Source of the DNA: Gekko japonicus
Lineage: Eukaryota
Direction of reading: 5' to 3'
DNA length: 64,000 bases
NCBI RefSeq assembly: GCF_001447785.1
Contig: NW_015175410.1
Location: forward strand, 152,230 to 216,229
Of this stretch, positions 9,984 to 57,534 are shown piece by piece (the first letter of the stretch is position 1; each line of letters starts with the position of its first letter). The notes beneath the pieces were generated by a model. It had not been told where the DNA came from, did not search any database, and saw nothing but the letters and a program-made list of their open reading frames with translations. A program made the position numbers and the translations under genes.

Positions 9984-10140
9984 ACTTAGCATTAAATCCT
10001 GATGAGAGAGATCCTAATTTTTTCCACCATTACAACTGGCCATTAGCCTTCCTCAAGTAACTTGAAATTAGCCTGAATTATCCAGTGGCTGAGCTTTGTA
10101 TTATTGCCACTGGGTGTTCCAGATTAGTGCACTGTTAACT

Positions 10141-18394: not shown

Positions 18395-19325
18395 TGTCAG
18401 GAACTATGTGCTGCAAGATTCTTCTGCCAAAGGCTGCATTGGCCGAATCACATAGGTTCATTTTGTAGTGCCTCAAAAATAGCAAGATTGATTACCTGTT
18501 GCTGCTCTGCATACTTCCCCAACTGACACATGTTTAGTGAAAGCTGCATTTGTGGCAGCACTCCTTACTGAATGCGCTATCCCAGGTCTTCTACCTTGAG
18601 GGACTTGTAGGCCTCAATGACGCATGCTTTAAGCGTAGCACTAATTGCTGCTTTTGATATCTTCCCACCTATGTTAGGAGCAGAGATGTTCATGAATAAG
18701 GAATCCATTTTCCTGAATTGCTCAGTTCTAACTAGGTAGGTCCTGAGAGTCCATCTGACATCCGGTGTATGCCAAAGTTGCTCCTTGAGGTGTATGAGAT
18801 TCAGACAGAATGACTGAAGGCCTATGAAATTTGGAATTGACCTTAGGTTGGAAGGTAGGACCTGTTCTGAGAACTACTTTGTCCTTGTGGAAGGTGCATA
18901 ACTCAGACTTGACCAATACGGCACCCAATTCTGGGACCCTTTGAGCTGAAGTCATCGCTACAAGAAAGATAGTCTTCACTCTCAGCCAGCGTAAAGCTAT
19001 TACTGTAATTGGTTCAAATGGATATCTAGTCAGGGCTGATAAAACTGTGTGTAGCTTCCATGTCAGAAATCTATGCATCTGAGGTGGTATATATGTATAT
19101 GAGGATGATTGGATAAATTGCTACCCTCGATTTGTGGAAGAACTGATGCGAATGCAGCTACTTGTCTTCTAAGCGTGGAGGGTTTGAGTCCTATAGTCAA
19201 GCCATCTTGTAGAAATGCCAATATCACTTCCAAGAAAGGGCTGAATGTATTGACTTTCTCATGCACCATCTACCAAATTCATTCCAAAAGTTGTTGTATA
19301 TTTTAATACCTGATGGTCTTCTAGA
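18395..19325 (-). pseudogene. DIRS tyrosine recombinase (frameshifted)
   Basis: SRRPSGIKIY..W..F.RWC; ILAFLQDGLTIGLKPSTLRRQVAA; WKLHTVLSALTRYPFEP...KTIFLVAMTSAQRVPEL...FHKDKVVLR. Manual translation further gives AHSVRSAAT (HxxR) and FLRHY (catalytic Tyr). Confidence 0.88.
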
Positions 19326-19932
19326 GGTTTTCTTGGATGATGCCGCTGTCCTGGACCCATTCCACTCTGGCTTCTGCCCTGCCCATGGGACAGAGACAAT
19401 GCTAGTTGCCCTTGCAGATGACCTCCAGGGACATCTGGATTGGGGAAGGTCAGCACTGCTGTTGCTTCTTGATCTAACAGCAGTGTTCAACATGGTTGAC
19501 TACGACCTTCTGACCCACCGCCTCACTGATGCTGGAATATGGGGGACTGCCTTACAATGGCTTTCCTCCTTCCTTCATGGTCGGGGACAGAGGATGGTAC
19601 TCGGAGAGAAATTGTCCCAGCAACACCCACTAAAATGTGGGGTGCTGCAAGGGGCTATCCTCTCCCTGATGTTATTCAACATCTACATGTGCCCCCGTGC
19701 CCAGTTAGTCTAGGGGTATGGGCTGGGTTGTCATCAATATGCTGATGACCCCCAGCTCTATCTGCTGATGGATGGATAGACCCAGAGGTACTGGACAGGA
19801 CATTACAGGCTGTGACTGGACGGTTTAAACAGAGCCAACTGAAACTGAATCCAATGAAGATGGAGGTCCTTGTACCTGAGTCGTGGGGAGCTGAGATTGG
19901 GAATCCAGCTCCGAACCCTTGGCAGGGAGTAA
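19326..19932 (+). mobile_element. L2 LINE reverse transcriptase fragment
   Basis: LDPFHSGFCPAHGTET...LLLLDLTAVFNMVD...GVLQGAILSLMLFNIYM...QYADD. Confidence 0.85.
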
Positions 19933-19934
19933 GC

Positions 19935-21011
19935 AGTGAAGTGGCTAAATTTGCGGATGATACAAAGTGAAGTGGCTAAATTTGCGGATGATACAAAGTT
20001 GTTCGGGGTGGTGAAAACCAGTGAGGATTGTGAGGCACTCCAAGGGGATCTGTCAAGGATGGGCGAGTGGGCGTCAACATGGCAAATGGGGTTCAATGTG
20101 GCCAAGTGCAAGGTGATGCACATTGGAGCCAAAAATCCTAAATATAAATACACATTGATGGGGTCTGAACTGGCAGAGACTGAGCAAGAGAGAGATCTTG
20201 GAGTTGTAGTGGATAACTCACTGAAAATGTCGAGACAGTGTGTGACTGCAATAAAGAAGGCCAATGCTATGCTGGGGATTATTAGGAAGGGTATTGAAAA
20301 CAGATCAGCCAATATAATAATGCCCCTATATAAATCAATGGTGAGACCTCATTTGGAATACTGTGTGCAGTTCTGGGCACCACACCTTAAAAAGGATATT
20401 ATAGCTTTGGAAAAAGTGCAGAAAAGGGCAACTCGAATGATAAAAGGGTTGGAACACTTTCCCTATGAGGAAAGGTTAAAGCGCTTAGGGCTCTTTAGCT
20501 TGGAGAAAAGACGACTGAGGGGTGACATGATCGAGGTTTATAAGATTATGCATGGGAAAGAGCAGGTAAAGAAAGAGGTACTTTTCTCCCTTTCTCACAA
20601 TACAAGAACTCGTGGGCACTCCATGAAACTGCAGAGCGGTCGGGTTAGAACGGATAAAAGGAAGTACTTCTTCACCCAAAGAGTGATTAACACATGGAAT
20701 TCACTGCCACAGGAAGTGGTGGGTGCTACAAGCATGGACGGCTTCAAAAGGGAATTAGATAAGCATATGGAGCAGAGGTCCATCAGTGGCTATTAGCCAC
20801 AAGGTATAGCTAGGGGCTCTGGGGCAAGTGATGCTCTGTCTTCTTGGTGCTTGGGGGGGGTCAACAGTGGGAGGGCTTCTAATGTCCTGGCCCCACTGCT
20901 GGACCTCCTGATGGCACTGGTATTTCTGGCCACTGTGTGACACAGAGTGTTGGACTGGATGGGCCTTTGGCCTGATCCAACATTGGCGTCTCTTATGTTC
21001 TTATGTTCTTA
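19935..21011 (+). mobile_element. Young CR1 LINE, 5'-truncated
   Basis: Uninterrupted ORF KFADDTKL...PLYKSMVRPHLEYCVQFW...WNSLP, followed by a 3' UTR and (TTATGTTC)n tail. Confidence 0.95.
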
Positions 21012-21051
21012 AATGTAGGAGCAGGACCAGGGTACTTTAATCCATCAGGGA

Positions 21052-21628
21052 NNNNNNNNNNNNNNNNNNNNNNNNNNNNNNNNNNNNNNNNNNNNNNNNN
21101 NNNNNNNNNNNNNNNNNNNNNNNNNNNNNNNNNNNNNNNNNNNNNNNNNNNNNNNNNNNNNNNNNNNNNNNNNNNNNNNNNNNNNNNNNNNNNNNNNNNN
21201 NNNNNNNNNNNNNNNNNNNNNNNNNNNNNNNNNNNNNNNNNNNNNNNNNNNNNNNNNNNNNNNNNNNNNNNNNNNNNNNNNNNNNNNNNNNNNNNNNNNN
21301 NNNNNNNNNNNNNNNNNNNNNNNNNNNNNNNNNNNNNNNNNNNNNNNNNNNNNNNNNNNNNNNNNNNNNNNNNNNNNNNNNNNNNNNNNNNNNNNNNNNN
21401 NNNNNNNNNNNNNNNNNNNNNNNNNNNNNNNNNNNNNNNNNNNNNNNNNNNNNNNNNNNNNNNNNNNNNNNNNNNNNNNNNNNNNNNNNNNNNNNNNNNN
21501 NNNNNNNNNNNNNNNNNNNNNNNNNNNNNNNNNNNNNNNNNNNNNNNNNNNNNNNNNNNNNNNNNNNNNNNNNNNNNNNNNNNNNNNNNNNNNNNNNNNN
21601 NNNNNNNNNNNNNNNNNNNNNNNNNNNN
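21052..21628. other. Assembly gap (N run)
   Basis: Continuous N characters. Confidence 1.
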
Positions 21629-21649
21629 CCCCCCGGACTACTTTGACCA

Positions 21650-22640
21650 TCATGCCTTTGGGGATTTACCCTCACGGTCTGATCTTTCTGGTCTGGCAGT
21701 TGATTGCTTGGGAAATCTTGGACTGAATGATCCCCTTTTGAATGTTTGTCTGAAGGATCCCTGGTTGGCTCTTTCGGAGTCTTGTTTAAGTCTGGAAAGT
21801 GTATGTTGGGAGCAAAAAGAAAAATTACCAAAAGATCTCCTACTGGCACATCTGAGCATCTTAGGCATTGCCTTCTTCTGGTCTCTGGTCTCAGTCAGTA
21901 TTTTGTCAAGGGCATCTCCGAACAGTCTATCAACCCTGGAAGTGATAGGCTGTAACGATATTTTTGGAGTGGAGGTCTGCTTGCCATGCTTGCAGCCAGA
22001 GCACCCTCTTTGCGGCTGCTGCTGTGGCCAATGCTCTTGATGAGAAGATCATGATAACAAAGGTAGCTTCCATTGTAAAGGCATTGGCTTTCAAAAATTC
22101 TGTTAGCCCCCTCTAAGAGTCTCCTGCTGTTTTGTGGAAATAGTTGAATCTGTTTCCTAATCCATACGATGGCTGTCCTGGAGACAATGGAGGCTGTGAC
22201 TGAGGCTTTGATAGCCATGGCGATAGCCTCACATGTCTTCTTCAGAGCTGTTTCTGCTCTTTTGTCAAAGTTGTCTCTGAGTGACTCCTGGCCATCTTCA
22301 GAGAGAAGACCATATGACTGAAGGGCAAAAAACCAGGGCATCCACTAGGGGAACTTGTAAAATCTCATTTGCACATAATGGCAATGCATAGAGTTCCTTA
22401 ACAAAATTAGGAAATCGGCAATTGGTGATTGGCTTTGCCCATTCTGCCTTAAGGTGTCTTTCAAAAAATTCAGGGAGAGGGAGTACCCTCTCTGATGGAT
22501 TAAATCTGGGGAAGAATTCCTTGTTCCCCCTGAGTCTAGATTTTGACTTTGACTTTGATCAGAGGGGAGTCTTGGAGTTCCAGTGTTTACAGGGTCTTCT
22601 GGCTTAAAAACACGCAGACTGTTCTGGCACACTGATCCCT
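21650..22640 (-). pseudogene. DIRS gag-like ORF remnant (LAP2alpha-like domain)
   Basis: SEDGQESLRDNFDKRAETALKKTCEAIAMAIKASVTASIVSRTAIVW resembles vertebrate DIRS gag / LAP2alpha. It lies between the ITRs, on the same strand as the YR. Confidence 0.7.
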
Positions 22641-23044: not shown

Positions 23045-23892
23045 TTTGTTATTGTTGTTCAGTCGCACAGTTGAGTCCGACTCTTCACAACCCCATGGAC
23101 CAGATCACGCCAGGCCTTCCTGTCTTCTGCCGTCCTCTGAAGTTGGCTCAATTTCATGTTCGTTGCATTGATGACACTAACCATCTCATCCTTTGCTGTC
23201 CCCGTCTTCTTTGACCTTCAATCTTTCCCAGCAACAGGGTCTTCTCCAATGAGTGCTCCCTTCTCATTTGGTGGCCAAAGTATTTGAGCTTCAGTTTCAT
23301 TATCTGGCCTTCCAGGGAACAGTCAGGGTTGATTACTTTTAGGATTGACTGATTTGATCTTCTTGCAGTCCAAGGGACTCTCAAGAGTCTTCTCCAGCAC
23401 CATAGTTCAAAAGAATCTATTCTTCGGTGCTCGGCCTTCCCTATAGTCCAGCTCTCGCAGCCATACATGACTACTGGGAATACCATTGTTTTGACCATGC
23501 GGACTTTTGTTGGCAGGGTGATGTCTCTACTTTTTATCATGCTGTTTAGGTTCGCCATCGCTTTCCTCCCAAGGAGCAGGCGTCTTTTAATTTCATGACT
23601 GCTGTCACAGTCTGCGGTGATCTGGGATCCTAGGAACGAGAAGTCTGTCACTACTTACACGACTTCCCCTTCTATTTGCCAAGGAGTGATGGGGCCGGAT
23701 GCCATGATCTTAGTTTTTTTGATGTTGAGCTTCAAGCCCACTTTTGCGCTCTCCTTTTTTTCTCCCTGAGCAAGAGGCTCTTAAGGTCCTCTTCACTTTC
23801 TGCCATTAGAGTGGTATCGTCTGCATATCTGAGGTTGTTGATCTTTTCCCCAGCAATCTTAATTCCCGCTTGTGATTCATCCAGGCCAGCAT
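23045..23892 (-). mobile_element. RTE-BovB LINE, 5'-truncated, inserted in the DIRS element
   Basis: ORF 23154-23651 is BovB-type. 11-bp TSD TTCTCCCAGCT (23034-23044, 23893-23903). Confidence 0.93.
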
Positions 23893-25670: not shown

Positions 25671-26604
25671 AGGTCCCACAGAACATCGTTTGAGTCCAGT
25701 GGCATCTTTAAGACCAACAAAATTTTAATTCTGGGTATACGCTTTTGTGTGCATGCTGAGAGAAGGGGTCAAGCCACACAGGAGACCTGTATTCATATTT
25801 CCAAATGTTTACTTTCTTTATCTAAAAAGCAACTGCATGGGCCTCTGAATCTGACTTAAAACCGTAGAGACAGAGTTCAAGTCTTCACATACCCCTCTAA
25901 ATCACCACCCAAAATGTTGCAAACAGGTAAGAAGGAAAGCCATTTATATTGGGGAAATAGTGCAGGGAGAAGAGTCCTCAGATCTGCTGTTTCAAAGAAA
26001 TCTGGAGCCTTCTACAGATGCTTCCAATAAAAATAAGCATGAGGGGGTTGATTATTGATCTCACATGTAGCATCTAGCTTGATCCTGAATTAGGTTCAGT
26101 TCAAGCAACACAGCTGACGATCTCCAGCATGTTACACTGTGTTTCACAGAATACTTGAACTGATACATCTGCAAGAGGCAGTAGCAAAAAGTCTCAAAAT
26201 ATGGCAAACCCAAAAACATATGATAATTCTTTCCTGATTCCCGTAGTAAAAGTTATTTAACATAAGATTTTATATTGCTTGGCAGAGGATGGAGCATTGG
26301 AAACAAGGTGTGAATGGGATATTGATGGGGAGAGAGATGTGCCATGCAAGTGTGAAAGACATGGAAAGGAAATAAATGTATTTCTCAACTGCTGCCTTCA
26401 GTGGGTCGGGTTCTTCTACATCTGTGGACATCTAGAACTTTGAGAGTTTTGTTTTAAATAAAGTGAGCAAAGTCAGATTTCTCAGGATTCTGTATCTGGC
26501 AAAGATTCTGACCATGTGGATTTCTAGATCCTAGATTTAAGGAGCTGTGAAAACTCGCACATTAAGAGATGCAGAGACAAGAGGTCTACATGCAGAAATC
26601 ATAC

Positions 26605-26710
26605 CATCATTGTTTGTGTCCATCTGTCTGAAGATTTTGTCTGTTCGTTTCTCTGGAGTAGATTCATCCTCTGGCATTTTCATTACTGAAGACACCATTT
26701 TGTAGATGGC
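26605..26710 (-). CDS. HPCAL1: HPCAL1 second coding exon (106 nt)
   Basis: Encodes [35 protein letters not shown]+G. Acceptor cttcctttacag at 26711-26712, donor GTATGA at 26604. Confidence 0.97.
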
Positions 26711-27283
26711 CTGTAAAGGAAGCAGAATAGGAGGAAATCTGTCGTACGACATTATGGGAATTGTAAGTCTACTGCTAACAAGACTGACATAGTGGATGCT
26801 TACATAACAAGTTATGGAAAGTAAAATATTTGCCAGCTTATCCCATACTTCTAGGGATTGTTCCAACTTTTAAAAAGACAACAAAAGCCAAGCCAAGACC
26901 TAGTACTTATGGAACTGTCTTACTATTTCTATATGATCATACTGTTCCTTAGAACTTTCATATGCTTAATTGTAGAAAGATCATTAATCTGTACCTCTTG
27001 CCATTTTGTATATGTTTATGGTAATTTATTCTGCCTTTGATTATTCCATGATGTTGTTCTTTCTGGCATTACATTTTCCAGATATGGTTTGTAATTACTC
27101 TGCCTTTTGTAAGTACTAGATCTTGGTTCTGCTTCTGTTGGCGTGTCACTTAAGAACCTCTCCTTTTCTTTGGCTCAACGTTTAACAAGTCTAGCACTTT
27201 CAAGCATGAAGACAGGCACTGTAGTTTATGTGTCATGTGTTCCTATCATACTGCTTGCACTTGTTTGTATTTGTTATGCTTAA

Positions 27284-28370: not shown

Positions 28371-28811
28371 ATGCCCAGTGATACAAACTGCTATAGACTG
28401 TGAAGTCAGTTAAGAGGTATGTTGGATTTCTGAGTGTTCAGTACACAGATGCATATTCATATATTAGCATACAGAATTGCTTTATACAGAATCATGCCAT
28501 TGCTCCATTTATCTCAGCAGAGTCTACTATGAATTAGCAGTGGCAGGCTATCAAGCAAAGATAAGTTTGTGCTTGCACAAGAAACTCTTGTTTTCTGCAA
28601 GCACAAGGTCTTGCTGTCCACAAGCTTCCAAATGTTCTGCCTTCTCCCAAATCAGCTGTAGGCAGCTCCACAGAGCCAACAAAAAGGGGGGATCTAAATA
28701 AGATGACACTGATTTTAGAGAGCAGCTGCAAAGGGCAGCAACCTGTCTGTTGAAGGAATTAAAAGGAATTGGGCTGGGCTAGATCTTCACACAGCATGGC
28801 AATTAACTTAC

Positions 28812-29189
28812 CTGTACTATCTCAAGCATTTCTGCTCGGCTGATGTAGCCATTGCCATCGAGGTCATACATGCTAAATGCCCATTTCAACTTCTGTTCAA
28901 GCTTTCCCCGTGAAGTGACACTCAGTGCTATTATAAATTCCCGGAAATCAATCGTCCCATCTCCATTGGTATCGAAAGTGCGGAACACATGCTCGGCAAA
29001 TTTCGAGGCATCGCCATAGGGGAAGAAGTTAGCGTATATCTTTTTGAACTCGTCAACAGTCAAGTGGCCAGTTGGGCAATCTTTTAGGAAACCTTTGTAC
29101 CATTCTTGGAGCTCGTGGTCTGTGAATTCAGTATTTTCTCGAAGATCCTGGAGTACTTCAGGTCTCAGCTTACTGTTCTGCTTCCCCAT
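28812..29189 (-). CDS. HPCAL1: HPCAL1 first coding exon (aa 1-126), neuronal calcium sensor with EF-hands and N-myristoylation motif
   Basis: Translates [56 protein letters not shown]...EMLEIVQ. ATG at 29189. Donor CAG|GTAAGT at 28811. Acceptor tttctttcattgcag puts the exon start at 29213, leaving 24 nt of UTR. Confidence 0.97.
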
Positions 29190-30723
29190 TCTGTTCTCGA
29201 TTAATGTCTAGGGCTGCAATGAAAGAAATCATGTCAATTTTAAATCCACAGCTGCATTCAAAATCCAGTCATAGAAGGGTTCCCAGAAGTATGGAAGCCT
29301 CTGTATCTTAACCCTTCTTTCCTTTTGGCTCCCAGCTGCCAACAGTATGAAACCTGGGGAGGTTTGTGTTGTGTGTGTTTTTTTTTTTAAAGCAGTTCAG
29401 ACTGATATGCAAGTAATTTCCTCCTTTAATTTGTGCAGAATTATATAATTCATAATCCTTTTTTCCTCATTATGTCCTTGTGTTTACTGAAAGCATAAGG
29501 ATTGACAATAAACAGGGCTGTATAGGTATTGCTAACACCCAACAGGTACTTTTGCCTACTTTAAGTTTCTTCTCATAACCTTGAAAATTATATAATTTAG
29601 CTGCAAATTAGACATTAAATATCATAACCTCTCCCAGTATCTTTCCCCCCCAAAGCAATTCACTAAAATGTCTAACTTTTGTGGGACTCAACCCATATGG
29701 TCTGGACACACACACACACACTGTGGCACTCACCTATGTGGGCAAAAGTTATAGAAATATTTTGAAAGTAGATTCAAGAATTTCAGACCAAATAACAACG
29801 ATGTAAGGACAGTGGGGAAAACCAAAGTGAAACCTGGGCCAAAAATCACCCCCAAATTTAAGAAAATTACTCTGGAGGACCTTTCACTCCCACTCCATAA
29901 CACATGCTACAGGCATGTTATCTTAGGCAAATACAGTTGTGAGCACAGAAGTGATTCAACTAATCTAGTATTCACTTCAAAACAAAACAAATCAAAGCAA
30001 GCCACCACCTGCCATTATGCAATCAGGAAAGTACAGGGAAAATAAGTTCAAATATTTTCCAAGATTACTATAAATTACAGGTAAGTACCTGCATTCAACC
30101 GTGTTGTTGTTCTGGTACAAGCATTTGCCTGGAGAATGGCATACCTAAGTCTGTGACTGTGTTCCACCCTGGGGCACTGCACCTTTTAGAAAGCTTCTTA
30201 AAAATAGCAACCCACAGTTTCAGCCGTGTGAACTTTTCCAAAGGGTTTTTCTGTGACGAAGCTTAATCAGGCAAAAGGACTAATGGCAACAGACCAGGGA
30301 TTTCCCAACTGTACTTTTTACAGCCAGTTCACCAAGCAAGAAATCTTGTATACAAAATGGAGAGGTGCAAAGTGCCTGCTACTTCACAGGGAGTGTGATG
30401 CTGGCATTCAAGATATGCCACAACTGCCTAAGAAATCTGCCCAGATCTCTTCCACTCAGTCTTTAAGCATCAAAGAGATCAGAGATAAATTTTGCTGCAG
30501 AGGCTAAATTGTATGCTCAGCTGTCCCTCTCACCACTCTCCCCCAAATTGCATGCATGAGTTGTTCAGACTAAGACCATGTTTGCTGCCTTGAGTGACCC
30601 TAGACAGACTTCTCTAACTACCTCTCAATTTCCATATAAAACAGACTGTGTAGTGCATTTGCCCAGAGGGGTCAAGTGATCGCCTAACAATCACTTGGAT
30701 TTGTATGTGGTCAAATTAACAAG

Positions 30724-31237
30724 GGCTGCGGTCACACGTAACAGAAGCCACACAAGTGAGACAGAAAACAGCCGGAGTTTCCGGGCGCGATCTCACCAGC
30801 ACATCTGGGAAGCGTAGCACTCCCGTGGCTCAACCGAGGCTTCCAGCCGAAACTGCGTGGCAAAAAACTAGTACCTTGGAGATACTAGTTTCCGGAAACT
30901 GCGGGGCAAAGGCGGGCGTCTGATCGCGTTTCCGGTGGCATCCGGCGCCCGCCCATGTCCCCTTGCAAATAAGGTGGGGTTTTTTTGTCCAAGTCTCTGT
31001 GGATGCGCATGCGCATTTGTCATGTACACAAAAATAAAAAACAGTTTGCCGCGACGCGCGCTTCTTCGTTGTGCGCCGGCTTGTCCTGTGATCGGCACCT
31101 CTCCCTTGCCATGGAACCTCCACGGTACCTCCACAGGACCTCCACAGGAGGTCTGATCACGTAACTGCGCAGTAGTTTGCCCCAGGGCAAACAGCCACGC
31201 TTCTCCTCTGCAGTTTCCTGCCCGTGTGACCGGGGCC
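30724..31237. mobile_element. PIF/Harbinger-like MITE, CpG-rich
   Basis: TIRs GGCTGCGGTCACACG / CGTGTGACCGGGGCC. 3-bp TSD AAG. Confidence 0.7.
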
Positions 31238-32321
31238 AAGGATTGGTTTAAAGCCCTGGAGGAGAGGCAGGACTTTTGGGGATGATCACCATACCATGTG
31301 TAGACTTTTTCCCATTCCACCCCACCCTCCAGCCTTTCACATGCATGTCACCACTTTATGAAGAAGGACTACTGTGAAGAACTCTGGCCGAGCAATAGCA
31401 AACAAAACAAACCATCACAAGACAACCACCACACCTCATGAAAACTAAACACTTTCCTGGCCCAATCTGAATATCTTCATCTGAACATTTTTTGGGGAAG
31501 GGGGCAGTTAGCAAGAAAAGGATGTCATTACTGAAGGTTACCAAAACCCGAACTCCACACAGGGCTAATTATACTCCTTTAATTTCTACGCCGGCTTAGC
31601 AATATTCAATCCTATCCTGCTCAGAGAGAAAAAGGGGGGAAAAAGCAACCAGCTGCTCATTAATAAAACACATCAGGTTTAAAACAGAAACCTGTGTTTA
31701 TATCATTAGCTACTTCTGTGTCGCAGAAACCATAAACATTCCAACCTCCTCGCTTCATTTCTATTCACTGTTTGCTCTAATGGAACCCTGCTTGCTTCCA
31801 AAATGTTGAAATGTTTAAGCTAAGCTCCCAGCTGGCAGAGCTGTAAGCCATGTAAAGAGCACAGAGGAACTCTCCAGCTAATTGTACACACTGACAGCTA
31901 GGCAAATAAATTGCTTTCCATGTTTATTTCAAAGCGTTATTCAAGGTATGCTATTCATACAAGGATTGGGGGAGGAAGGGAAAAGAAAAGAGAGAAAGAG
32001 GAAAGAAACCAAACACTTTCCATTCTGAAGTACTATAAGGAGCAAATGGAATCTCCAGCCTCACTATAGAAACAACTTTTCACTCCCAAGGTTATGAGGA
32101 AGGAGAGAAAAATGGCCTTCACATAGTGACCGCTCTAGAAAATTCCTCTGGTTTCTATGGTAAAGATCAAAGATGGGGGAGGCAGCCTAGAGCATTGCCT
32201 AGAGATGACACCACATTCTCCCCAAACGCCACCTTCTCCAAACACCCCCCCCCCGATCCCCCAGCATTTGTTGAAGCATTGTTAGCATTCTAGTTTTTAA
32301 GAGTATCAGGCACTAAACAAT

Positions 32322-33014
32322 GGGTGCGTTCAGACCCATCTGAACATTTAGTCTTCTTTCGGCATGCTTCAGTAACTGATTTTATATCCACGTTCACACA
32401 TCCAACATCTGCGCACTGTCCCCAGCTGTTGCTTTCCGGCACAAACCCCATTTAAAATGGAGTATTTTGTTACCAGGTTCCCAAGTGGTGTTTTCCTGAT
32501 TCTCCGGTTCTAGCCGCACTGTTCTGACGTCTGATCGCTCCTGCGGTGTCGAGCCACTTCTGCTCGGAAGCCCGAGGCTTCCGCCCTTCGCCCGCCATTT
32601 TATTTTAGCGTCGGCGGTATGCGCACAGGCGGAGCTCCGCTCCTGCGTTATTAAAAACAATGTTTAAACGGTGCCTAGTTTTGTTGGTTAGACGAGTTTG
32701 GGATCTCACAGAGGCCAGTTTCGGGGTAAAAGTTTAAAGGGAAGTGTTACAGCAGTTGGGTTGAAGTGGAAATTGCTGTTCTGCGCATGTGCGAAAATTT
32801 TAATTCTACAGATGGCCGCCTGTGCGCATGCCCAAACTGAGAGGAAAACCCCCCCACTGACGCACGCTCCCACATGTGGACAGCAGAGAGCGATGTGGCT
32901 GTGCAGCGATCCGGAACAAGGAGGTGAGTGTGATCGCAATTCTCCAGGTTAAAAAAAAAAGCTTTGGGCCTGGAGCAATTTAAACTGCTCCCAGCACGCC
33001 ATCTGACCACACCC
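32322..33014. mobile_element. PIF/Harbinger-like MITE, CpG-rich
   Basis: TIRs GGGTGCGTTCAGAC / ATCTGACCACACCC (11 of 14 match). 3-bp TSD AAT. Confidence 0.65.
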
Positions 33015-35278: not shown

Positions 35279-35949
35279 GGCTACATTATTTGTGTCATTC
35301 GCTTCTCTGGCAAGATTTGGCAAGACTCCTTAACTGGACTAATTACGGGACACTGCATTGAGGCATTTCTTTTTTCCGTCTTCGACTACCTATCCCAAAC
35401 TATTTTGGATTCTATGATCTTTGGCTCCAGCTAATGGTGAAGTTTGCAAATAAAATCATGAATAATATAAAAAATATTTAATGAATCGACAGATTGGAAA
35501 AGACTTCCTTAATAAACAATACTAATAAATAATTACTAATCACTATCTTTTTATCTTTTTAAAGTAGTATTAGGTGTTAAATATATTAATTCATTATTTG
35601 AGTGACATTACTATGATTTGTTTTTGGATTATTTCTATTTTCTGATAACCTATATCTTTCCTGTGGAATAAGTTTTGCTTTTCCTCCTACTAACATATTT
35701 TAGAAAACTGTTGATCGTCTGCATATATGAAATAAGTTGTAATACCCTGAAATAATATTGATGTTATATTGCATTCAGAAATTAATAAAAGGATTTATTT
35801 GTTGAGCTTCTGGAGCTTGCCGAAGCACAGTAATTGTGTAGGGGGAGCTATGATTAATCGATAAACAGTTATTTTTGCTGATTTCATTGAACGCTAATAA
35901 TAACTAAGCTTATGGTTGACTCATTGGTATTGCTACTGATAGATGAAGA

Positions 35950-36693
35950 AATTGTATAAAATATTTAGAAGGAGAAGGGTACTTAGAAAAATAAGAATGT
36001 CAACAAGATTAAAAGATAAGGATAAGAAGGGGAAAGGAAAGGATGAACATGATGTTTTAGATTTTAAAAAATTCAAGACGTAAGCCTCCAAATCAAACAG
36101 CGTGAAGAACACACTGATCAAAGGCTCAAAAAGAAATCTCAGACATGAAAGAGGAATTAAAATTAGGACTAGAAGATATCCAGAGTAAATTGCAAGAAAA
36201 TTCTCAAGAGATTAAGAAAGCTAAAGACAAATTTAAATATTTGGAATTGCATTAACAAGCTCAAGATATATGCTTGGATAGAGAAGATCAGAGAATTGAG
36301 ATTCTGGAGGTCCAAAACAGAGTCAATAATCTATGATTTAGAGGTTGAAGATTTTGGTAAAACAAATCTGAACGATTGCTTCCGTAAAGTGTTACAAGAT
36401 TATTTAAAGATTCAAGGAGACTTTCCAGATATTGATCAGATATAAAGAGTTAATTCAAGGTTTGCTTCAAGGAACAGGTTACCTCGAGATAACCTGATTA
36501 AATTTGTATACAAAAAGACAAGAGATACCACACTGAACAAACAGAGAGACCCTCCCCTTAAAATTGCAGAGAAAGAGATCAAGATATTTCAAGATTTACC
36601 TACAACAGCCTTAAGGAAAAGAAAAGACTTTGATTTTTTTTTTTGCGGTAAATTCTGCAAAAAGAGAGAGAGAATTTTGTTTTGTATATATAG

Positions 36694-36751
<58 letters not shown>

Positions 36752-37140
36752 AGATACCACTGGAGAATCCCATGTGCCTTAGAGGTTTCATTACCTAAAG
36801 GCAGAAGATTAATATCTCAACAGTTGAACAAGCTAAACAATAGGCAGAAGAACTATCAACAGAGGACACACAGGATGATTTTGAAAATTCTGAGGATTCT
36901 GAAAAATCTAAAAAAAAAAAAATTAAAAAAAAAAATCCAGACAAGGAAGAAGATAAACTAGACCAAGCTGCAGCATCTTGACAAAATGAACAAATAAAAG
37001 ATAATATTTTTGAACATAAAATCCAGGCAAGGAAGAAGATAAACTAGACCAAGCTGCAGCATCTTGACAAAATGAACAAATAAAAGATAATATTTTTGAA
37101 CATAAAGAGGAGAAGAAAAGAAGACTATTGAGAAGACTAA
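35950..37140 (+). pseudogene. Degenerate L1 ORF1 relic
   Basis: Broken frames give LEVQNRVNNL*FRG and DIDQI*RVNSRFASRNRLPRDNLIKFV, paralleling the ORF1 at 55523-56455. Includes (AG)n at 36701-36747. Confidence 0.65.
36932..37106. repeat. Tandem duplication, period 86 bp
   Basis: ATCCAG(A/G)CAAGGAAGAAGATAAACTAG...TTTTTGAACATAAA occurs at 36935 and 37021. Confidence 0.9.
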
Positions 37141-37142
37141 GT

Positions 37143-37336
37143 GAGAAGAAGAGATTGGATTTATACCCCACCCTTCACTACCCAAAGGAATCTCAGAGCA
37201 GCTTACAATTTCTTTTCCCTTCCCCTCCCCACAACAGACATCCTGTGAGGTAGGTGGGGCTAAGAGAGCTCTTCCAAGGACTGCTCATGAGAGAACAGCT
37301 CTGAAATAACCTGTAACTGACCCAAGGTCACACCAG
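37143..37336 (-). mobile_element. tRNA-derived SINE, truncated
   Basis: Matches the tail and body of 52457-52738. Confidence 0.8.
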
Positions 37337-37900
37337 AGAGTACCAAACCCCCCACATATTGTGTCACTTGGCAAAACAGTCCTTGCTGGATTAGGGCACC
37401 TTCAGAGACTGCTTTATATTCTTTCCTAACTTTTTAAGACTTCCAACCACCTTATCAGGCATTCAAAGTGACACCTTTCCTGACTGGGTATATTTTACAT
37501 CATTTGTACCCAACTCTTTTCCCCATTGGGGGACCCAAAGTGGCTAACAATGTTCTCCCCTTCTCCATTTTATTCTCACAACTACCCTGTAAAACAGGTT
37601 AGGCTGAGTGTCTGTGTGTGTGTGATTGGGCCATGGTTACCCAGCAAGCTTCCATGGCAGAGTGGCGATTCAAATCAGCAACTCTGATGGATCTCTGATT
37701 GGGTACAGACAGCCCATTGATTCACTAATATCTCCCTTTGTGGAGGGAATGCCTGTCCTGTGACCAAACAATCATGTTTAAACTGCTGTCAGATTAAGCT
37801 AACAAACTCTTCTAAAAAGCAGCAAGAAACGTTATGCTTACTTTTTATTGTTACGATATATTAATGAATACAAAATATTAAGTCGAGCTATTCAGTTTCA

Positions 37901-38248
37901 TGGAGCTGCGGTGGCTCAAGTGGTTAAGACGCTGAACTGCAGGGTGTGGAAGGTCAGTAGTTCAGCAGTTCGAGACCCGGGTGCCGCATGATGGAGTGAG
38001 CTCCCATCTCTAGTTTCAGCTCCTGCCAACCTAGCAGTTCGAAAGCAAGAAATTGCAAGTAGATAAATAGGTACCACTTCGGTGGGAAGGTAACAGCGTT
38101 CCGTGCGCCTTGGTGTTTAGTCATGCCGGCCACATGACCACGGAAATGTCTTCGGACAGTGCTGGCTCTTCAGCTTTGAAACGGAGATGAGCAACGCAAC
38201 CCTAGAGTTAGATTCGACTGGCTTTCGAGCAAGGGAATCTTTACCTTT
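37901..38248 (+). mobile_element. Sauria SINE, full length
   Basis: Head, core and tail as in 3803-4148. 12-bp TSD TATTCAGTTTCA. Confidence 0.92.
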
Positions 38249-44404: not shown

Positions 44405-46853
44405 TCATGCTTTCAGCCAAAGAGTGCTTGTTAATGGTTCCTCATCTTCTTGGAGAGGAGTGACAAGTGGAGTGCCTCAAGGATCTGTCCTGGAAGGGAT
44501 CTGTTTTGTTCAACATCTTTATAAATGATTTAGAGGAAGGAATAGAGGGAATGCTTATTAAATTTGCAGACAATACTAAATTGGGAAGGGTAGCAAATAT
44601 GGTAGAAGACAGAATCAGGATACAGGATGATCAAGGTGCCCTAAGGGAAATCGTCAACAAGTCCCTCTCAGAGGGTCTGTTCCTGGGGGCACTCAAGCGG
44701 TGGTATGTCCTCTCTGAAAAAAGCTGTCTCTGGACCCGACTGAATTGGCGAACTACCATCCGGTTTCCAACTTGCCCTATTTGGGCAAGATAATAGAGAG
44801 GGCTGTGGCAATGCAGGTACAGAGCTTTTTGCATGACGCTTCCATTTTAGACCCCTTCCAATCCGGCTTTCGCCTGGGTCATGGCACAGAGATGGCACTG
44901 GTTGCCCTCACAGACGATCTCTGGAGGCATCTGGATCGGGGTGGATCGGCAGTGCTTTTGTTGTCGGACCTGTTGGCTGCGTTCGACATGGTCGACCATC
45001 AGCAACCGATCCACCGCCTCGCCAACACTGGAATTCAGGGGCCTGCCTTGCAATGGCTCACCTCCTTTCTCCAAGGTCGGGGACAAAGGGTGGCCCTGGG
45101 GAACAGCCTTCCCGAAGGCACCCATTGGATTGTGGAGTGCCTCAAGGGGCGGTGCTGTCCCCGATGTTATTTAACATCTACATGAGCCTACCGATAGCAT
45201 ACCGGATTCACTTCAAGGTGCTGGTTCTTACCTTTAAAGCCCTTTATGGTCAGGGACCTACATACCTGAGGGACCGCCTTTTCCCACATGTTCCCCAGAG
45301 AGCACTGCGATCAGGGTCCCAACACTGACTGACCCTTCCCGGACCAAAGGATGCCAGGCTGGCTATAACCAGGGCTAGGGTTTTCTCAGTGGTGGCTCCT
45401 CTCTGGTGGAATGAGCTTCAAGAGGAGATCAGGGCCTTGCAGGACCTTATGCAGTTCCACAGGGCCTGCAAGACTGAGATCTTCCACCAGGCTTTCAATT
45501 AGGAGCCTCCCCAAGGGAGAACCATGTTCCCTGGAAGTCATCAACACAGCCTGTGCCAGCCGCACAATGTGAGATCTGGGTCGACCACTAGGATGATATA
45601 ATGAAGGTCAACCGCCATCTTACATTTATTTTTAACTTGTTAATCTTCTAATAACTTATTAGGATCACTACCTGTTAGCAACTTTTAATATTGAAACTGT
45701 AATATGGTTTTAGGATTATTTGAATTACTTATTGTTGTTTTTACTTCTTCTGTAAGCAGCCCGGATCCAGCCTTGGCTGGGAGGGCGGGGTATAAATTTA
45801 ATAATAAATAAATAAAATAAATACATCGTGACAGGCTGGAAATCTGGGTTAAAACAAATAAAATGAATTTCAATGGGGAGAAATGTAAAGTTCTGTATTT
45901 AGGTAGGAAAAATCAAATGCATAATTATAGGATGGGGGAGACTCATCTTGGCAGTAGTATGTGTAAAAAGGATCTAGGGATCTTAGCAGGCCATACACCA
46001 TACACAGAACATGAATCAGCAGTGTGATGCGGTGGCTAAAAAGGGAAATGCCATTTTGAGCTGTATCAATAGAAGTATAGTGTCCAGATAATGCTAAGCG
46101 ATGGTATCACTTTGCTCTGCTCTGGTTAGACCTCACCTAGACTGTGTTCAGTTTTCGGCACCACACTGCAAGAAGGATATAGACAAGCTGGAATGTGGCC
46201 AGAGGAGGGCAATGAAGATGGTGAGGGGCTTGAGACCAAGTCCTATGAAGAAAGATTGAAGGAACTGGGTATGTTTAGCCTGGAGAGGAGATGACAGAGA
46301 GGTGATATAACCATCTTCAAGTACTTGAAGGGCTGTCATATAGAGGATGGTGCGCAGTTACTTTCTGTTGCCCCAGAAAGTCAGACCAGAACCAATGGGT
46401 TGAAATTAAATCAGAAGATTTTTCGGCTAAACATTAGGAAGAACTTCCTGACAGAGTGGTTCCTTAGTGGAACAGGCTTCCTCAGGAGGTGGTGGGCTCT
46501 CCTTCTTTGGAGGTTTTCAAGCAGAGGCTAGATGGCCATCTGACAGCAATGCTGATTCTGTGAACTTAGGGAGATCATGAGAGGGAGGGCAGGAAGGATT
46601 GCACCAGTGCTTAGTTCTTGTGGCCTTTTCTTACACTCCCAGGGAAATGCTGATCACTACTTTGGGGTCAGGAAGCAATTTTTCTCCAGGCCAATTTGGC
46701 TGCAGATCCTAGGGTGTTTTTGTGTGTGTCATCTTCTGGGCTTGAAACAGCGGTCACTGCGGGTGTGGAGGGGGAGGTATTTGTGAATTTCCTGCATTGT
46801 GCAGGGGGTTGGACTAGGTGACTCTGGGGGTCCCTTCCAACTCTATGATTCTA
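44405..46853 (+). mobile_element. Older CR1 LINE split by an L2 insertion
   Basis: GSVLFNIFINDLEEGIEGMLIKFADNTKLG before 44631. The element resumes at about 45826 and ends in TTCCAACTCTATGATTCT. Confidence 0.85.
44632..45822 (+). mobile_element. L2 LINE fragment (internally deleted) with 3' tail
   Basis: NYHPVSNLPYLGKIIE...LDPFQSGFR...GVPQGAVLSPMLFNIYM is joined to LPIAYRIHFKVLVLTFKALYG. (TAAA)n tail. Confidence 0.88.
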
Positions 46854-49916: not shown

Positions 49917-50702
49917 CATAAGAACATAAGAGATGCCAATGTTGGATCAGGCCAAAGGCCCATCCAGTCCAACACTCTCTATCCCACAGTGGCCAGAAAT
50001 ACCAGTGCCATCAGGAGGTCCACCAGTGGGGCCAGGACATTAGAAGCCCTCCCACTGTTGACCCCCCCAAGCACCAAGATGACAGAGCATCACTTGCCCC
50101 AGAGCCCCTATCTATACCTTGTGGCTAATAGCCACTGATGGACCTCTGCTCCATATGCTTATCTAATTCCCTTTTGAAGCCGTCCATGCTTGTAGCCGCC
50201 ACCACCTCCTGTGGCAGTGAATTCCATTTGTTAATCACTCTTTGGGTGAAGAAGTACTTCCTTTTATCCGTTCTAACCCGACCGCTCAGCAATTTCATGG
50301 CGTGCCCACGAGATCTTGTATTGTGAGAAAGGGAGAAAAGTACCTCTTTCTCTACCTGCTCTTTCCCATGCATAATCTTATAAACCTCAATCATGTCTCC
50401 CCTCAGTCGCCGTTTCTCCAAGCTAAAGAGCCCTAAGCGCCTTAACCTTTCCTCATAGGGAAAGTGTTCCAACCCTTTTATCATTCGAGTTGCCCTTTTC
50501 TGCACTTTTCCCAAAGCTATAATATCCTTTTTAAGGTGTGGTGACCAGAATTGCACACAGTATTCCAAATGAGGTCGCACCATTGATTTATATAGCGGCA
50601 TTATGCTATTGGCTGATCTGTTTACAATACCCTTCCTAATAATCCCCAGCATAGCATTGGCCTTCTTTATTGCAGTCACACACTGTTTCGACATTTTCAG
50701 TG
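49917..50702 (-). mobile_element. Young CR1 LINE, 5'-truncated, inserted in an L2-type tail
   Basis: Near-identical to 20220-21011 in reverse orientation. It interrupts TTTATTTATTTACAT...GATTTATACCCTGCCCTCCCC. Confidence 0.93.
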
Positions 50703-52171
50703 ATTTATACCCTGCCCTCCCCACTGGAGCAGGCTCAGGGCGGCTTGCATAAAAGATTAAAACAGATAAAACCAGAATGTTTATAATACATTTAAAAGTG
50801 CTAGTGTGCAATACTACAAATATGATGGCTGAACGCAGTATCAGATCAATCATAGCGGGAATACAGTCAGCAATAATTTTGGGACAATTATCTCGGTCCC
50901 ATACTAAATTCCAATTTATACCGGCAAGGAACAGGCTGCTGCTGATGGCTCCAGGGCGCACAAACCTATACCACTTTCTATCAGATTCAGAAACCTACTG
51001 ACCACTACAGATATCTCCAGACTTCTAGCTAACATCTAGAACATGCCACACAATCCATTGTATACAACCAAGTACTATAGGAAAACCACATTTGTGTGGG
51101 TTCCTTGGACAGAGACTCCCACTTACAGGATTTACGTGAGGTGTTCTTGAAATTACAATACCCATTCAAGTGACAAATCAGATTGATATGGCGAGACTGG
51201 TAAATGGAGATAGATCACTACAGAACAGACCAAAGATGGTGACAGAACGCCACCTAACTAAAGCTACTGCAGTTTATCTACAGTCTGTTCTGGACAAAGA
51301 GGATTCTCTCTCATGGGCGGTAGACTTTTGTTTACAAACAGTCTTCTAGAGAGTTATTTACCTAACAGAGACAATAGCCCAGGGATCAGACCCTGAACAA
51401 ACCCAGATTGCCAATCTGTCACCATATGCACTCAGGCAGAACTCTACACTGGACAAATAGGCCATTTTCTGCATGAAAGATTAGAATAAACACACATTTG
51501 ATATTAAAAACAGGCAATTTTAGAAACCAGTGGGAGGATGTTTCAGTCTACTGGGACACTCTGTTGCTGATCTATAAATCAGCATTCTTCAGAGGAAAAC
51601 CAAAAATTAGACTCCAACAGAAATTACTGAATCGGAATCAATAATTTGATAGTATTTTATGCTACATCACATCTGTTTTTAAGGTACCACAAGACTTTTT
51701 TTTACTTCAAAAGACTAAAAATGGCTACCACACTGAAATTTAAGTTGTACAATGGAAATATTGCCTCAATTATTCAAGCTTGTTTTGAAAGGAAACATTG
51801 TCTCCTTATGATTCCCACCCTTACCATAGGTTCTGGATTGCACAACTAGGCCAAGAATGGCACAAATTACGATGCCTCCATTTCTAGGTAAGGAAACTCC
51901 TAACAAAGTAATGTTTATGATGAAATGTGAAAATATATCCAAAAGGGTTATTTCAAATTCCCTTTTAGATATTTTTAAACTTCCTAACTTGCATGGATCA
52001 CACGTTCTTTAAGTCTTTCAAAATATTGCTTCTCCAGGAAAATATGCATTGTTTTTAACCAACAAATGTTTCACAAGCATGGTAGGTTCAAAGTCATACT
52101 GCATACAAACAAGCATTCATAAGCATCTTAGGAGAACAAACACCACCACGGTTACTTCATGTCATGATTTC

Positions 52172-53217: not shown

Positions 53218-55004
53218 GAAAAACATTTTTATATCAAACACTTACTAGTTGGCAGCTTAATCCTCCCTTTAGGTTGATGTCATGTTATTTTCACAACTAA
53301 CAAAAATATAGCATATTAAAAAGAATAGTACTGAAATATAAGAAATCTGCTCTCTGTGTAAAGATGGTGACAGGCACTCCATTCTGGGTAATATGAATCC
53401 TAAAAACTAGGGTAAAGCAAGCAGCCGTGCTTTCAATATCTTGGAGGAAAAACTAGACTCAAAGATATTTATCCCACACACACACACACACACACACACA
53501 CTTCATTTGAAACTTTGAACATAGATGGCCAATTCTGCAGGAAATACCAGCAGACATCATAGCTTATTTGGCTTTCTCAAGGGGAGTAAATAATGAGATA
53601 TACTTACATTAAGATTTCAGGATAAAAAAATTAAAACTTGAATTATCACTATGGCTTCCAGAAGCATTCCACAAGTAGTTTGGAAAAGGGAGTCTTAATA
53701 CCAAGTGCCAATCCAGAATGATGACATGGCCAGTTAATCATTACATGTTGTTTCAAAGACGTAATGGATATTATTATTTTTACAGAAACATGCAGTGAAA
53801 ACAAAGAACCAAAAATAGTGTTTCAGCAGAAGCTTAGGTCTCAGTGTTTCCTTTCAAGAATGGCAATAGTCCAAGATACACAAACAATGTACAATATTTC
53901 CAAAAGAGTAGAGATCCCTTCATTTGAGAGGGGAAAGGAGAAAAAGGGGAAAAAATCAGACAGTTGTTGAAAATAGCTTAACCCAAGCTTTAAAGAGGCA
54001 GTTTTTAGAAAGGAAAAAGACACACATCTCTGGGCAAACCACTGACACAACAAAGCTGTAGGGCAGACAGCAGGCTGGAGAATTTCCAGCTGGGGTGGAG
54101 GAGGCAGGAAAACTGAGAAAAACATCAGTGGAATTTGGGCAGAAAATCTACTGTGAGGAAACAGTTCATACTTCCTTTGCTGCTTCAGTGGAAAAGATAT
54201 TTAGATAAAACTTCTTCTTTATTGTCAAGAGAAAGGCCAATTGTTCTACCTGAACAGCAGCTCTACACCATCAGACCCTCATCCAATTTCCCTGCCTTCA
54301 GAGAAATGTGATATACAGGCACTGTGTGTGTGTATAACCTTTCCAATGTCTCTGCTGCATGGATGGGAAACATAACTACTTCACAGAGAATGACTTATAG
54401 CTTGACTTCACTTTTCTGAATTCCATCTCACTAGCAGAATAGCCTGAACAAGCACACGGCTTTCAGAGGATTCCTATCGAGAAGGTAAGCCACAAATTAT
54501 CATTCCAGGTGTATACATGGCAAATCAGAAAAATGAAGATAATCCACTCAGACATCTATGGGAAATGATGCCCATGCACCTGCAAATATCATCAGTAGGA
54601 AAAAGAGCCATTACATCTACAGTTTTTTTAAAAAAGTTATAAATACCTATATGCAGTCTTCAACTCTGTTGTGAACTTCAGTACCCGTATCCCATGTACT
54701 CTTAACTATGTATGTGCAAAACTCACTGCAGGAATTTCTTTGTTCAGGCCAGTTTCCTGATTTAAAACACTGGGTTTCCATGAAAAATTTGGCTGATAAT
54801 TTAAATCCTACTTTATTCAAAATTATCATTTCCCCTCTTAAAATAACAGGCTTTAATGTATTTTTCACACATACATTTCTTCATACCCCCACTGTATAAT
54901 GGATTTTGTAGGATTATGTGAAGGGTTATTCTTCACACATGAATCATTTCATCAAGAAGAGTGCGAAATAGACAGGAACTGTTGGTTAAGAATGCAACAC
55001 AACT

Positions 55005-56706
55005 GACTTCTGGTTTTGGCGACTCAATGGCGGACGTGTCTCTCGAGCGCTCCCGATCCGTGAACTAGTGGATTGAGAGAGGGTGCAATTGTACGCACCC
55101 CCCAGGGGCGCTTACAAGGGGTTCAAGCCGAGGGGCGCCTCTCCACTGGCGTGCTGCCAGGGGATTGAGGCACCCCAAATGCCCCGAAGGTCTCTGCCAC
55201 TGCGTTCCCTTCTTGGGACTAAGAGGCATACACAGGGACAAGCGTGTGCAGATCGAGCACTTTAAAAGTTTGAAGGCGAGATCAACACGATCGACATTAA
55301 AAGTGAGTCTGGTTGAAACGAGCACCAGAGAACCGGCTGAAAGTCCCCCTTAAACTAAGTGAGGGGCGGGGGAATTAAAATGGACTTTAAATATGATTGT
55401 TTGAGGGGGATGGAATGAAAAGCAATATGGGACTAAAGTAAGGAAGTTACAAGAGATTTCCAAGCGGTTTGCAGACTTTAGAGACTTTTGGCAAAATAGA
55501 ATAAATGTAAACATTCTCAAAGATGTCGCACAAAAAGACGGAGAAAGACAAGCTTCCGAAAACTAAGCCTCCTTCAGGAAGTGCTAGGCCAGCGAGTGTG
55601 GTCACGTGACTGGACACAACTATAGACTTTTCAAAAATGCTAACAGAGGATTTGCGACCCCTGCTGGAGCAAATGAAAATGCTCAATGAAAATTTTGCCG
55701 CACAACAACAACAACTACATAAAACTGTAAAAAAAACCAGAGCAAACAGTAGAGAACTTGAAAAAAGTGGATGCCACTACAAAAAAGCTTAAAAAACAAA
55801 TGCAAGAGATGGAAAAGAAGAGAAACTCTGATGAAGCGTAATTACTACAAGTTCAAATGGAAAAGGCAAGCTTTATCCTGAGGTTTCAGGGGGTTCCTGA
55901 GAATAAAGGGGGGAATCTCAAGCAGACTATGGCTGGAATCTTTGGGACTGGTTGCAGATTTAAAAGCAAATTTCCTTTTAAGCGAGATGGATGTGATCTA
56001 TAGGTCATATTCAGAATTTATAAAGAAAAATAATCTGCCCAGGGAGGTGGTGGTGAGGTTCTCCAGAAGACAAGTAAGGGACCAGATCCTAAAAGCATTG
56101 GAACTACCCTATTCCCTTGGAAATAAGGGAAAAGAGGAATAAATATAGAGACTTGGCATTGTTTTTACAAAAGAATAACATCTCTTACAAATGGATTCTA
56201 CCTGAAGGATTACTCTTCAAATATAAAGACAAGAGAGAAAAAATTGACTCTGTTATGAAAGCACGAGAGTTTCTGTGGCAGCAGTCGGGACCAGCGGGAG
56301 AAGATGATGAGGACAAAGGGAGCGACGATGAATCACCTGCTGAAGAAGGCTCAGACTCGGAATTTGGGGCGGCTGCCTTTAAGCAAGGCTACCGTTTGAG
56401 GGAAAGAAGACATGAAAAAAATGAGATGCTGATTCTCTCTGAAGTTTGCTTTTAACTTTATAATTGACTCTTGTTTAGAACTTTACTAAATCAGATTACC
56501 TGGACTCGAAGTATATAAGCGATTTTTATAGTTCACTTGTAACAATATAACCTTAAATATTACAAGCTATGATATGTAACAACTGTAGTATCTCCACCTC
56601 TTGAGTTTTTAGTGGTTATGCTTTACTTTCTCTCATAGTTTGTAGTTTCCCCATCCTGTTTTTCTTGTAGTTTCAGAAAACTCAAAGAAATTGTCAAAAA
56701 AGAGAA
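55005..56706 (+). mobile_element. ORF1-only L1 derivative (half-L1-like)
   Basis: TSD AAGAATGCAACACAACT(GA) at 54988 and 56707. CpG-rich 5' end with ATGGCGG, ORF1 remnant at 55523-56455, A-rich tail, no ORF2. Confidence 0.85.
55523..56455 (+). pseudogene. L1 ORF1p (coiled coil, RRM, CTD), disrupted
   Basis: MSHKKTEKDK...coiled coil...FILRFQGVPENKG...EMDVIYR...LPREVVVRFSRRQVRDQILK...IREKRNKY...ISYKWILPEGLLFKY. Confidence 0.85.
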
Positions 56707-57534
56707 AAGAATGCAACACAACTGATGAATTTTGGAATGGTCACTTGTGTTTTTGAATTAAGATTAAAAGGTGCAGGCACTACCATGTCCATCCAAAGTT
56801 AAGTTTTTCCTGAGTCTTGGGATAAATCTACATCCTCAAAATGCTTTCTGTTCTGTGTAGGGATATACTATGCCTTCAGTCTGATCAAATTTCTCCTACC
56901 ATCTCAAAAAAATGTGATTTAGTTGTACAAGGCAAGAATCACGTGAGTGACATAATTATATAAAAATAACATTTTTGTGTTGCACAGAAGTCTTCTTTGG
57001 GAGGGAAGAAAGGTAAACACACACACAAACATATGAGGCTGCCTTCTACAGCATCAAACCATTGGTCTATCAGTGTCTTTCATGTAACACACTATCTGAA
57101 CATTTTTAACTGGTGATGCCAAAAACTGAACCTGAGCCCTTCCACATGCAAAGCAGATGCTCTACTACACTACTTTCTCTCCTGGCAGACATACAGCATA
57201 TGCAGGGAATCGCTGTTTAAAATAAAGGAGAAGCTGAATGAGCTGAGCACAGCAACATGGGGAGAGGTAGGGCTCCTTTCTTCCCCTCTGTACTACTTTC
57301 CAATTGAAACAGCACTGGGGAAGGGAGTTATTTCCCCCTTTTGGCTGCTCCAGATACAGTATTCTGTGCACAAGGAGCAGCCAAAAAGTGGGAAAGAGCT
57401 CCCCCAAGCAATGAATTGGGACTTGACTCTTTTAAAAAATGTAACATTTAAGTCAGCCTTGAGCCACAGACCCTACCCCCACTTTGTGAAAGAGAACAGA
57501 GTCTCAGAAGAGATTCTTCCAATGCCTTTGGTTA

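Follow-up and report, generated by a model that had tools for sequence, protein, structure and literature searches.

A LINE-1 (L1) derivative that carries open reading frame 1 (ORF1) and no ORF2 was identified in a 64,000-nt stretch of genomic DNA (contig NW_015175410.1, positions 152,230 to 216,229; the window). The element is a real and well delimited ORF1-only derivative of a squamate L1, with an L1 5' terminus, a CpG-rich leader, a disrupted ORF1, a short non-coding 3' segment and an A-rich end, all enclosed by a target-site duplication (TSD). It is probably a dead copy of a HAL1-type non-autonomous element, which descends, independently within squamates, from a clade-1 L1 that lost ORF2, and which moved with borrowed ORF2 protein (ORF2p), and its filing with a HAL1-type family is likely. 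A first-pass annotation of the window had already proposed an L1 origin, a squamate affinity, the presence of ORF1 but not of ORF2, insertion at an L1-type site and an organisation like that of HAL1, and these are supported by ORF1 profile matches, a clade-1 type terminus, the TSD and the lack of any ORF2 domain match. The lizard-type terminus and an agamid protein relative support a squamate host. Coordinates of all features are collected in Table 1.

The two TSD copies (54988-55006 and 56707-56725) were identical at 19 of 19 bases. Among 20,000 pairs of 46-nt windows drawn at random from the same sequence, the longest exact match of this kind was 14 nt, and a chance repeat was ruled out as the source by this maximum. 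The length of the TSD is given as 17-19 bp, because its last two bases double as the start of the 5' motif. The left copy is preceded by TT, and the insertion site TT|AAGA is presumably a variant form of the site cut by the L1 endonuclease. A TSD at an L1-type site is a feature of HAL1-type elements, and the perfect repeat around 1.7 kb reported on first pass was confirmed. Both ends of the element derive from one insertion event. The further claim that the element was inserted as one unit holds for its ends; the TSD says nothing about the length of the insert at insertion, for which 1.7 kb is the presumed value. The probability that a 17-bp TSD stays perfect is 0.18 if divergence is 5%, and 0.03 if it is 10%. 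The insertion is therefore probably fairly young, and all lesions described below can post-date it.

The 5' terminus of the element is that of the clade-1 L1s of anoles, given as GACTTCCGGTG-N8-ATGGCG by Boissinot and Sookdeo (PMC5381506). The element differs from this consensus by one mismatch, at a CpG, and by a spacer that is 3 nt longer, and its terminus was the best of three relaxed matches within the window. In the same source the mammalian YY1 site is given as CAAGATGGC. The ATGGCGG motif of the element had been labelled YY1-type, which is only partly right since ATGGCG is present but the mammalian CAAG ahead of it is not; the terminus is that of lizard clade 1 and not a full YY1 site. 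The CpG richness ascribed to the leader was borne out by a ratio of observed to expected CpG of 0.80 at 55007-55340, compared to 0.27 across the window, and the start of the leader is one of four 300-nt windows in the 64 kb that pass a CpG-island filter. The leader is presumed to hold an internal promoter for RNA polymerase II. With about 520 nt it is shorter than all nine anole clade-1 leaders (792-1465 nt; PMC5381506). A GTAAG splice-donor-like motif was seen by eye about 230-370 nt from the 5' end in several anole clade-1 consensus leaders (PMC5381506 supplement). Speculatively, a leader intron could explain short leaders such as that of the element.

The reading frame behind the leader was identified as an L1 ORF1 by comparison with its relatives. 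The C-terminal piece, used in an exhaustive search, found 73 proteins; Transposase_22 was found at E <= 0.01 in 10 of the 30 that were scanned, with two above the curated cut-off. When a profile of 16 relatives was compared to PDB, the top four matches were structures of the human LINE-1 ORF1 protein (ORF1p), with E values from 6e-12 to 9e-09. A profile of the 31 relatives of 260-420 aa matched the element in three frames (E 2e-16, 2e-14 and 2e-27), and the N-terminal piece matched one relative pairwise (E 9e-06). The only named relative among the 73 was a protein of the agamid lizard Phrynocephalus forsythii (38% identity over 55 aa), whose Atlas neighbours include L1 ORF1 clusters. A profile search returned two proteins, both among the relatives already found, and when four pieces of ORF1 were scanned with Pfam, nothing beyond a Transposase_22 match below the threshold was obtained (E 0.084). 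The order coiled coil, RNA-recognition motif (RRM), C-terminal domain (CTD) in the encoded protein, together with the L1 5' end, marks the element as L1-derived, as HAL1-type elements are.

ORF1 presumably starts with the ATG at 55523 and ends at 56424 or 56455, as set by an A run near 56415-56421. Its homology spans about 55625 to 56419, and the natural C-terminal acidic tail is reached. ORF1 of this copy is dead. Stops were read at 55607 and 55839, and likewise at least three frameshifts, near 55730 (in an A run), near 55945 and at a deletion of about 41 nt around 56097-56110. Two anchor codons are separated by 37 nt in the element compared to 26 residues (78 nt) in 26 of the 27 relatives that could be aligned out of 73, so about 41 nt are missing between RRM and CTD. 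The earlier description of a full-span, disrupted ORF1 was therefore right as to the disruption and the extent of homology, but this ORF1 is incomplete. At conserved positions 23 of the 27 covered residues were kept (85%), very similar to the leave-one-out median of 83% for the relatives, which suggests that ORF1 was constrained until recently.

Neither three frames across 1.4 kb past ORF1 nor six frames of the 3' segment showed an L1 domain; one frame compared to PDB also gave no match. A decayed ORF2 start directly past ORF1 was weighed by eye and was unsupported by the domain and PDB searches. According to the available literature, L1 ORF2 holds on average 42% A in mammals and the lizard. 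The 3' segment has 107 T and 64 A in 250 nt (43% T, 26% A, 32% GC), and so few A are expected of ORF2 with P 5e-08 (0.003 for the first 100 nt alone). ORF2 is thus absent, as in HAL1-type elements, with room for a decayed remnant of less than about 20 codons. This agrees with the 3' segment of about 250 nt without ORF2 that had been annotated. In anole clade-1 L1s the spacer between ORF1 and ORF2 is 0-110 nt long (PMC5381506), so the ORF2 of about 3.7 kb of an autonomous element would be expected at once past ORF1, where the element has none. The segment closes with a 77% pyrimidine tract at 56622-56674. It reads best as a true 3' untranslated region (UTR), because its length, GC content and pyrimidine tract fit the 3' UTRs of lizard clade 1 (194-570 nt, 33% GC, with poly-C/poly-T tracts) and not the purine-rich, G-rich spacers of clade 2 (both PMC5381506). 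The A-rich tail was found to be weaker than first described: the last 32 nt are rich in A, but the terminal A run is degenerate and only about 11 nt long. Neither AATAAA nor ATTAAA is present past 56138, where only the non-canonical AAGAAA occurs, whereas autonomous clade-1 L1s of lizards have a canonical AATAAA before the tail. Folding of the 3' segment was no better than that of shuffled sequences (z -0.8), and a Rfam scan gave nothing inside the element.

The weak 3' end could be explained differently, if the element is a 3'-truncated copy of an autonomous L1 with a long, T-rich spacer between ORF1 and ORF2. Its RNA would have ended early, with a poly(A) tail added at a weak signal, and would then have been retrotransposed in trans, and such copies may recur without a self-propagating family. 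The missing canonical signal and the short tail fit this explanation, it is recognised that ORF1-only RNAs can arise by early polyadenylation and be retrotransposed (PMC4859970), and long, T-rich spacers are known in fish L1s. However, anole spacers are 0-110 nt long in clade 1 and G-rich in clade 2, and the terminal pyrimidine tract matches a lizard 3' UTR. Early polyadenylation is considered unlikely on these grounds.

ORF2 could also have been lost only once, either from a full-length L1 after its insertion or by a template jump during copying; the TSD would be kept either way. Internal deletions are a known mode of decay of L1 inserts (PMC5872511), and the present copy already carries the 41-nt deletion and a short leader. 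Against this, both breakpoints would have to fall at the boundaries of ORF2, and no ORF2 remnant was detected. When single random deletions were placed in a full-length element, ORF2 was removed this cleanly in 0.13-0.63% of trials, in a toy model with tolerances set by us. Such a clean loss is improbable by random deletion, and a process yielding ORF1-only RNAs is therefore more likely; the precision of the loss is an argument for an ORF1-only template. A one-off deletion is regarded as quite improbable.

Next to a perfect TSD there are at least five lesions within about 900 nt, which could indicate that ORF1 was only a passenger. The element would then belong to a multi-copy non-autonomous family with an already non-coding master, which would have borrowed ORF1p as well as ORF2p. 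This is very unlikely, as the conserved residues were retained at the level of intact relatives, and neutral decay of about 5% fits the perfect 17-bp TSD (P 0.18) and, roughly estimated, the number of lesions.

Removal of ORF2 as an intron from full-length L1 RNA, giving SpIRE-like, repeated dead-end copies that share one junction, would account for the precise ends, and spliced L1 retrocopies, mostly dead ends, exist in humans; it is nevertheless hardly to be expected, as splicing in the human cases stays inside the 5' UTR or joins it to ORF1 and does not remove ORF2 (PMC5860796). Donor and acceptor would lie in the removed part, which makes one copy uninformative; no donor-like motif was found at 56380-56520, which is uninformative on splicing, as any donor that had been used would have been lost. 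A domesticated gene was rejected, since ORF1 is broken and runs opposite to the host gene.

The HAL1-type reading is therefore preferred, and the following course of events would fit it. A master copy would have been transcribed from its CpG-rich leader, the presumed internal promoter. Its own ORF1, presumably intact, would have provided ORF1p, which would coat the RNA as in the HAL1 model. ORF2p, probably borrowed from an autonomous L1, would then have nicked the TT/AAGA site, and target-primed reverse transcription would have copied the RNA right up to its 5' end, with the 17-bp TSD as a result. The stops and frameshifts in ORF1 would have arisen after insertion. Anole L1s are predicted to be relaxed, mobilising other RNAs in trans (PMC5322556). 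Somewhat more tentatively, and with slightly less than even confidence, we propose that the element represents an undescribed, independently evolved lineage of non-mammalian half-L1s, a squamate family of many copies that kept a selected ORF1 and was parasitic on the ORF2p of clade-1 L1s.

Several observations weigh against these proposals. One copy is known, and BLASTN found no second one within the window. Many copies with the same junction of ORF1 to 3' segment would also be expected if an autonomous L1 were repeatedly spliced or polyadenylated too early. The closest protein relative has just 48% identity over RRM and CTD, and word-index protein searches with the CTD piece, at longer and near lengths, gave nothing. 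The 41-nt gap in ORF1 may be family-wide and date from the master copy, and the conservation of ORF1 fits selection in an autonomous parent as well as selection after the loss of ORF2. The spacer comparison rests on Anolis only, from which the host may differ, and fish L1s are known to have spacers that are long and T-rich. All L1s are said to end with AATAAA (PMC5381506), a rule from which the element departs, and its tail is short.

The closest parallel to the element is found in mammals. HAL1 (half-L1) was reportedly described by Smit in 1999 and by Bao and Jurka in 2010. It is an ORF1-only L1 derivative with several origins in mammals, and it is described as mammalian throughout in the accounts available. 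Like the element, HAL1 is L1-derived, has only ORF1, is flanked by a TSD and needs the ORF2p of a full-length L1. The element differs in its squamate host, its lizard clade-1 5' end and its weak tail, and it is known here from one copy. Human ORF1p gave no match to ORF1 of the element up to E 10 in a single-sequence search, which argues for an origin separate from that of mammalian HAL1. Descent from the latter would also call for an ORF1 and a 5' end from a mammalian L1, whereas the element has a lizard-type terminus and an agamid as the only named relative. Literature searches aimed at a reptile or non-mammalian HAL1 gave no report, with subscription papers mostly outside their coverage. The ORF1-only design is already known, but the host group appears to be new.

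HeT-A and Ag-Sponge are found in insects. They belong to other LINE clades (Jockey and CR1, respectively) and share with the element an ORF1-type protein that was kept and the need for an autonomous partner (PMC5786205). The clade-1 L1s of Anolis carolinensis (L1_AC1 to L1_AC15; PMC5381506) have the same 5' terminus consensus, a CpG-rich leader, an ORF1 with coiled coil, RRM and CTD, and a 3' segment that is similar in both length and GC content, but are 6.2-6.7 kb long compared to 1.7 kb, whereas the element lacks ORF2 and AATAAA and has the shorter leader. L1TD1 (PMC4161310) and Lyosin (bioRxiv 2024.04.25.591049), the latter present in lizards, are domesticated L1 ORF1s without ORF2. These are conserved host exons, unlike the element with its broken ORF1, fresh TSD and orientation opposite to the nearby host gene.

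If the proposal is true, a squamate half-L1 from a separate L1 lineage would turn the keeping of ORF1 and dropping of ORF2 from a peculiarity of the single mammalian L1 lineage into a general strategy, and would make ORF1-only parasites a convergent outcome across amniotes. It would also offer a non-mammalian test of the need for ORF1p in cis during trans-mobilisation. Many L1 families coexist in lizards, so it can be asked which partner gives ORF2p and whether it is chosen by the 3' end or by ORF1p. Half-L1s have no reverse transcriptase (RT) and would therefore be overlooked by RT-based surveys. The gain would lie in a wider host range and a test system; the design is known and the mechanism is not new.

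Table 1. Positions, strands and basis of assignment of the element and of other features in the window.
Feature	Position	Strand	Basis or remark
Bracketed L1-derived unit	55005-56706	+	1,702 nt between TSD copies
5' TSD, after TT	54988..55004, 17 bp (19 bp including 55005-55006)	+	exact repeat
3' TSD	56707..56725	+	exact repeat
L1 5' terminus, anole clade-1 type	55005..55032	+	consensus from PMC5381506; top relaxed match in window
5' leader of about 520 nt with CpG island in first 300 nt	55005..55522	+	presumed internal RNA polymerase II promoter
Disrupted L1 ORF1 (N-terminal region, coiled coil, RRM, CTD, acidic tail)	55523..56455	+	profile matches to relatives
Non-coding 3' segment, 250 nt, putative 3' UTR	56425..56674	+	composition; no ORF2 domain
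A-rich end, 62% A over last 32 nt	56675..56706	+	AAGAAA at 56685; degenerate 11-nt tail 56696-56706
Hippocalcin-like 1, first coding exon	28,806-29,207 (about 28815-29200)	-	PDB match E 7e-88
Further EF-hand ORF	26,540-26,869	-	Pfam scan
Second, older L1 relic, another family	35,300-37,140	+	AT-rich leader, ORF1 35,997 to ~36,980
RT hits within the LINE relics below	at 19,213, 44,718, 44,837		Pfam scan
LINE relics	9,514-10,029; 23,154-23,654; 19,213-20,796; 44,718-45,328; 50,125-50,994		
SINE-like inserts	37,140-37,340; 37,905-38,245	-; +	
ORF fragments flanking CR1-like relic and assembly gap	18,728-19,120; 21,650-22,344	-	

The element is located 26 kb upstream of the coding exon of hippocalcin-like 1, on the opposite strand, and may lie inside a 5' intron of this gene. 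The second L1 relic is likewise on the strand opposite hippocalcin-like 1. CpG-island-like windows were also seen at 30,801-31,300 and 32,401-32,700.

ORF1 of the second relic is more decayed than that of the element; it was matched by 32 of the 73 relatives, and the two are about 30% identical over 64 positions. Its CTD contains an (AG)n expansion, and a tandem duplication of 86 bp spans the end of this ORF1. An ATG at 36,986 opens, by eye, a few codons resembling an ORF2 start, which are followed by a SINE-like insert, and no ORF2 domain was found downstream. No supported TSD was found around this relic, as 840 of 1859 null scores reached its score. It was rejected as a second copy of the element, having no DNA similarity to it and no supported TSD, and it is not countable as a second half-L1. 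As both L1-ORF1 relics in the 64 kb are without detectable ORF2, such half-L1s may be common.

A Pfam scan of 300 of the 310 window ORFs of at least 62 aa gave three RT hits and no endonuclease, but the scan is insensitive and also missed the known ORF1 relic. A motif scan for ORF2 over the window, a weak test, gave no L1-type match. The LINE relics other than the RT hits presumably correspond to BovB and CR1 3' ends. The ORF fragments at 18,728-19,120 and 21,650-22,344 are taken to resemble a DIRS-type retrotransposon, with the presumed CR1-like relic between them; the assembly gap consists of 577 N near 21,050-21,630. The SINE-like inserts, by our assumption, resemble Squam3 (with a CTT-type tail) and Sauria SINE. 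A CTT-type tail is tied to Squam3B of geckos and lacertoids (PMC7983390). Like the terminus and the agamid relative, these presumed SINE relics and the BovB-like ones would fit a squamate host. Two related GC-rich repeat copies at 188-700 and 7,400-7,860 contain internal tandem units, with exact matches of up to 58 nt. A tRNA-like match at 1,348-1,409 on the minus strand (32.8 bits, barely over the Rfam cut-off) is probably the head of a SINE.

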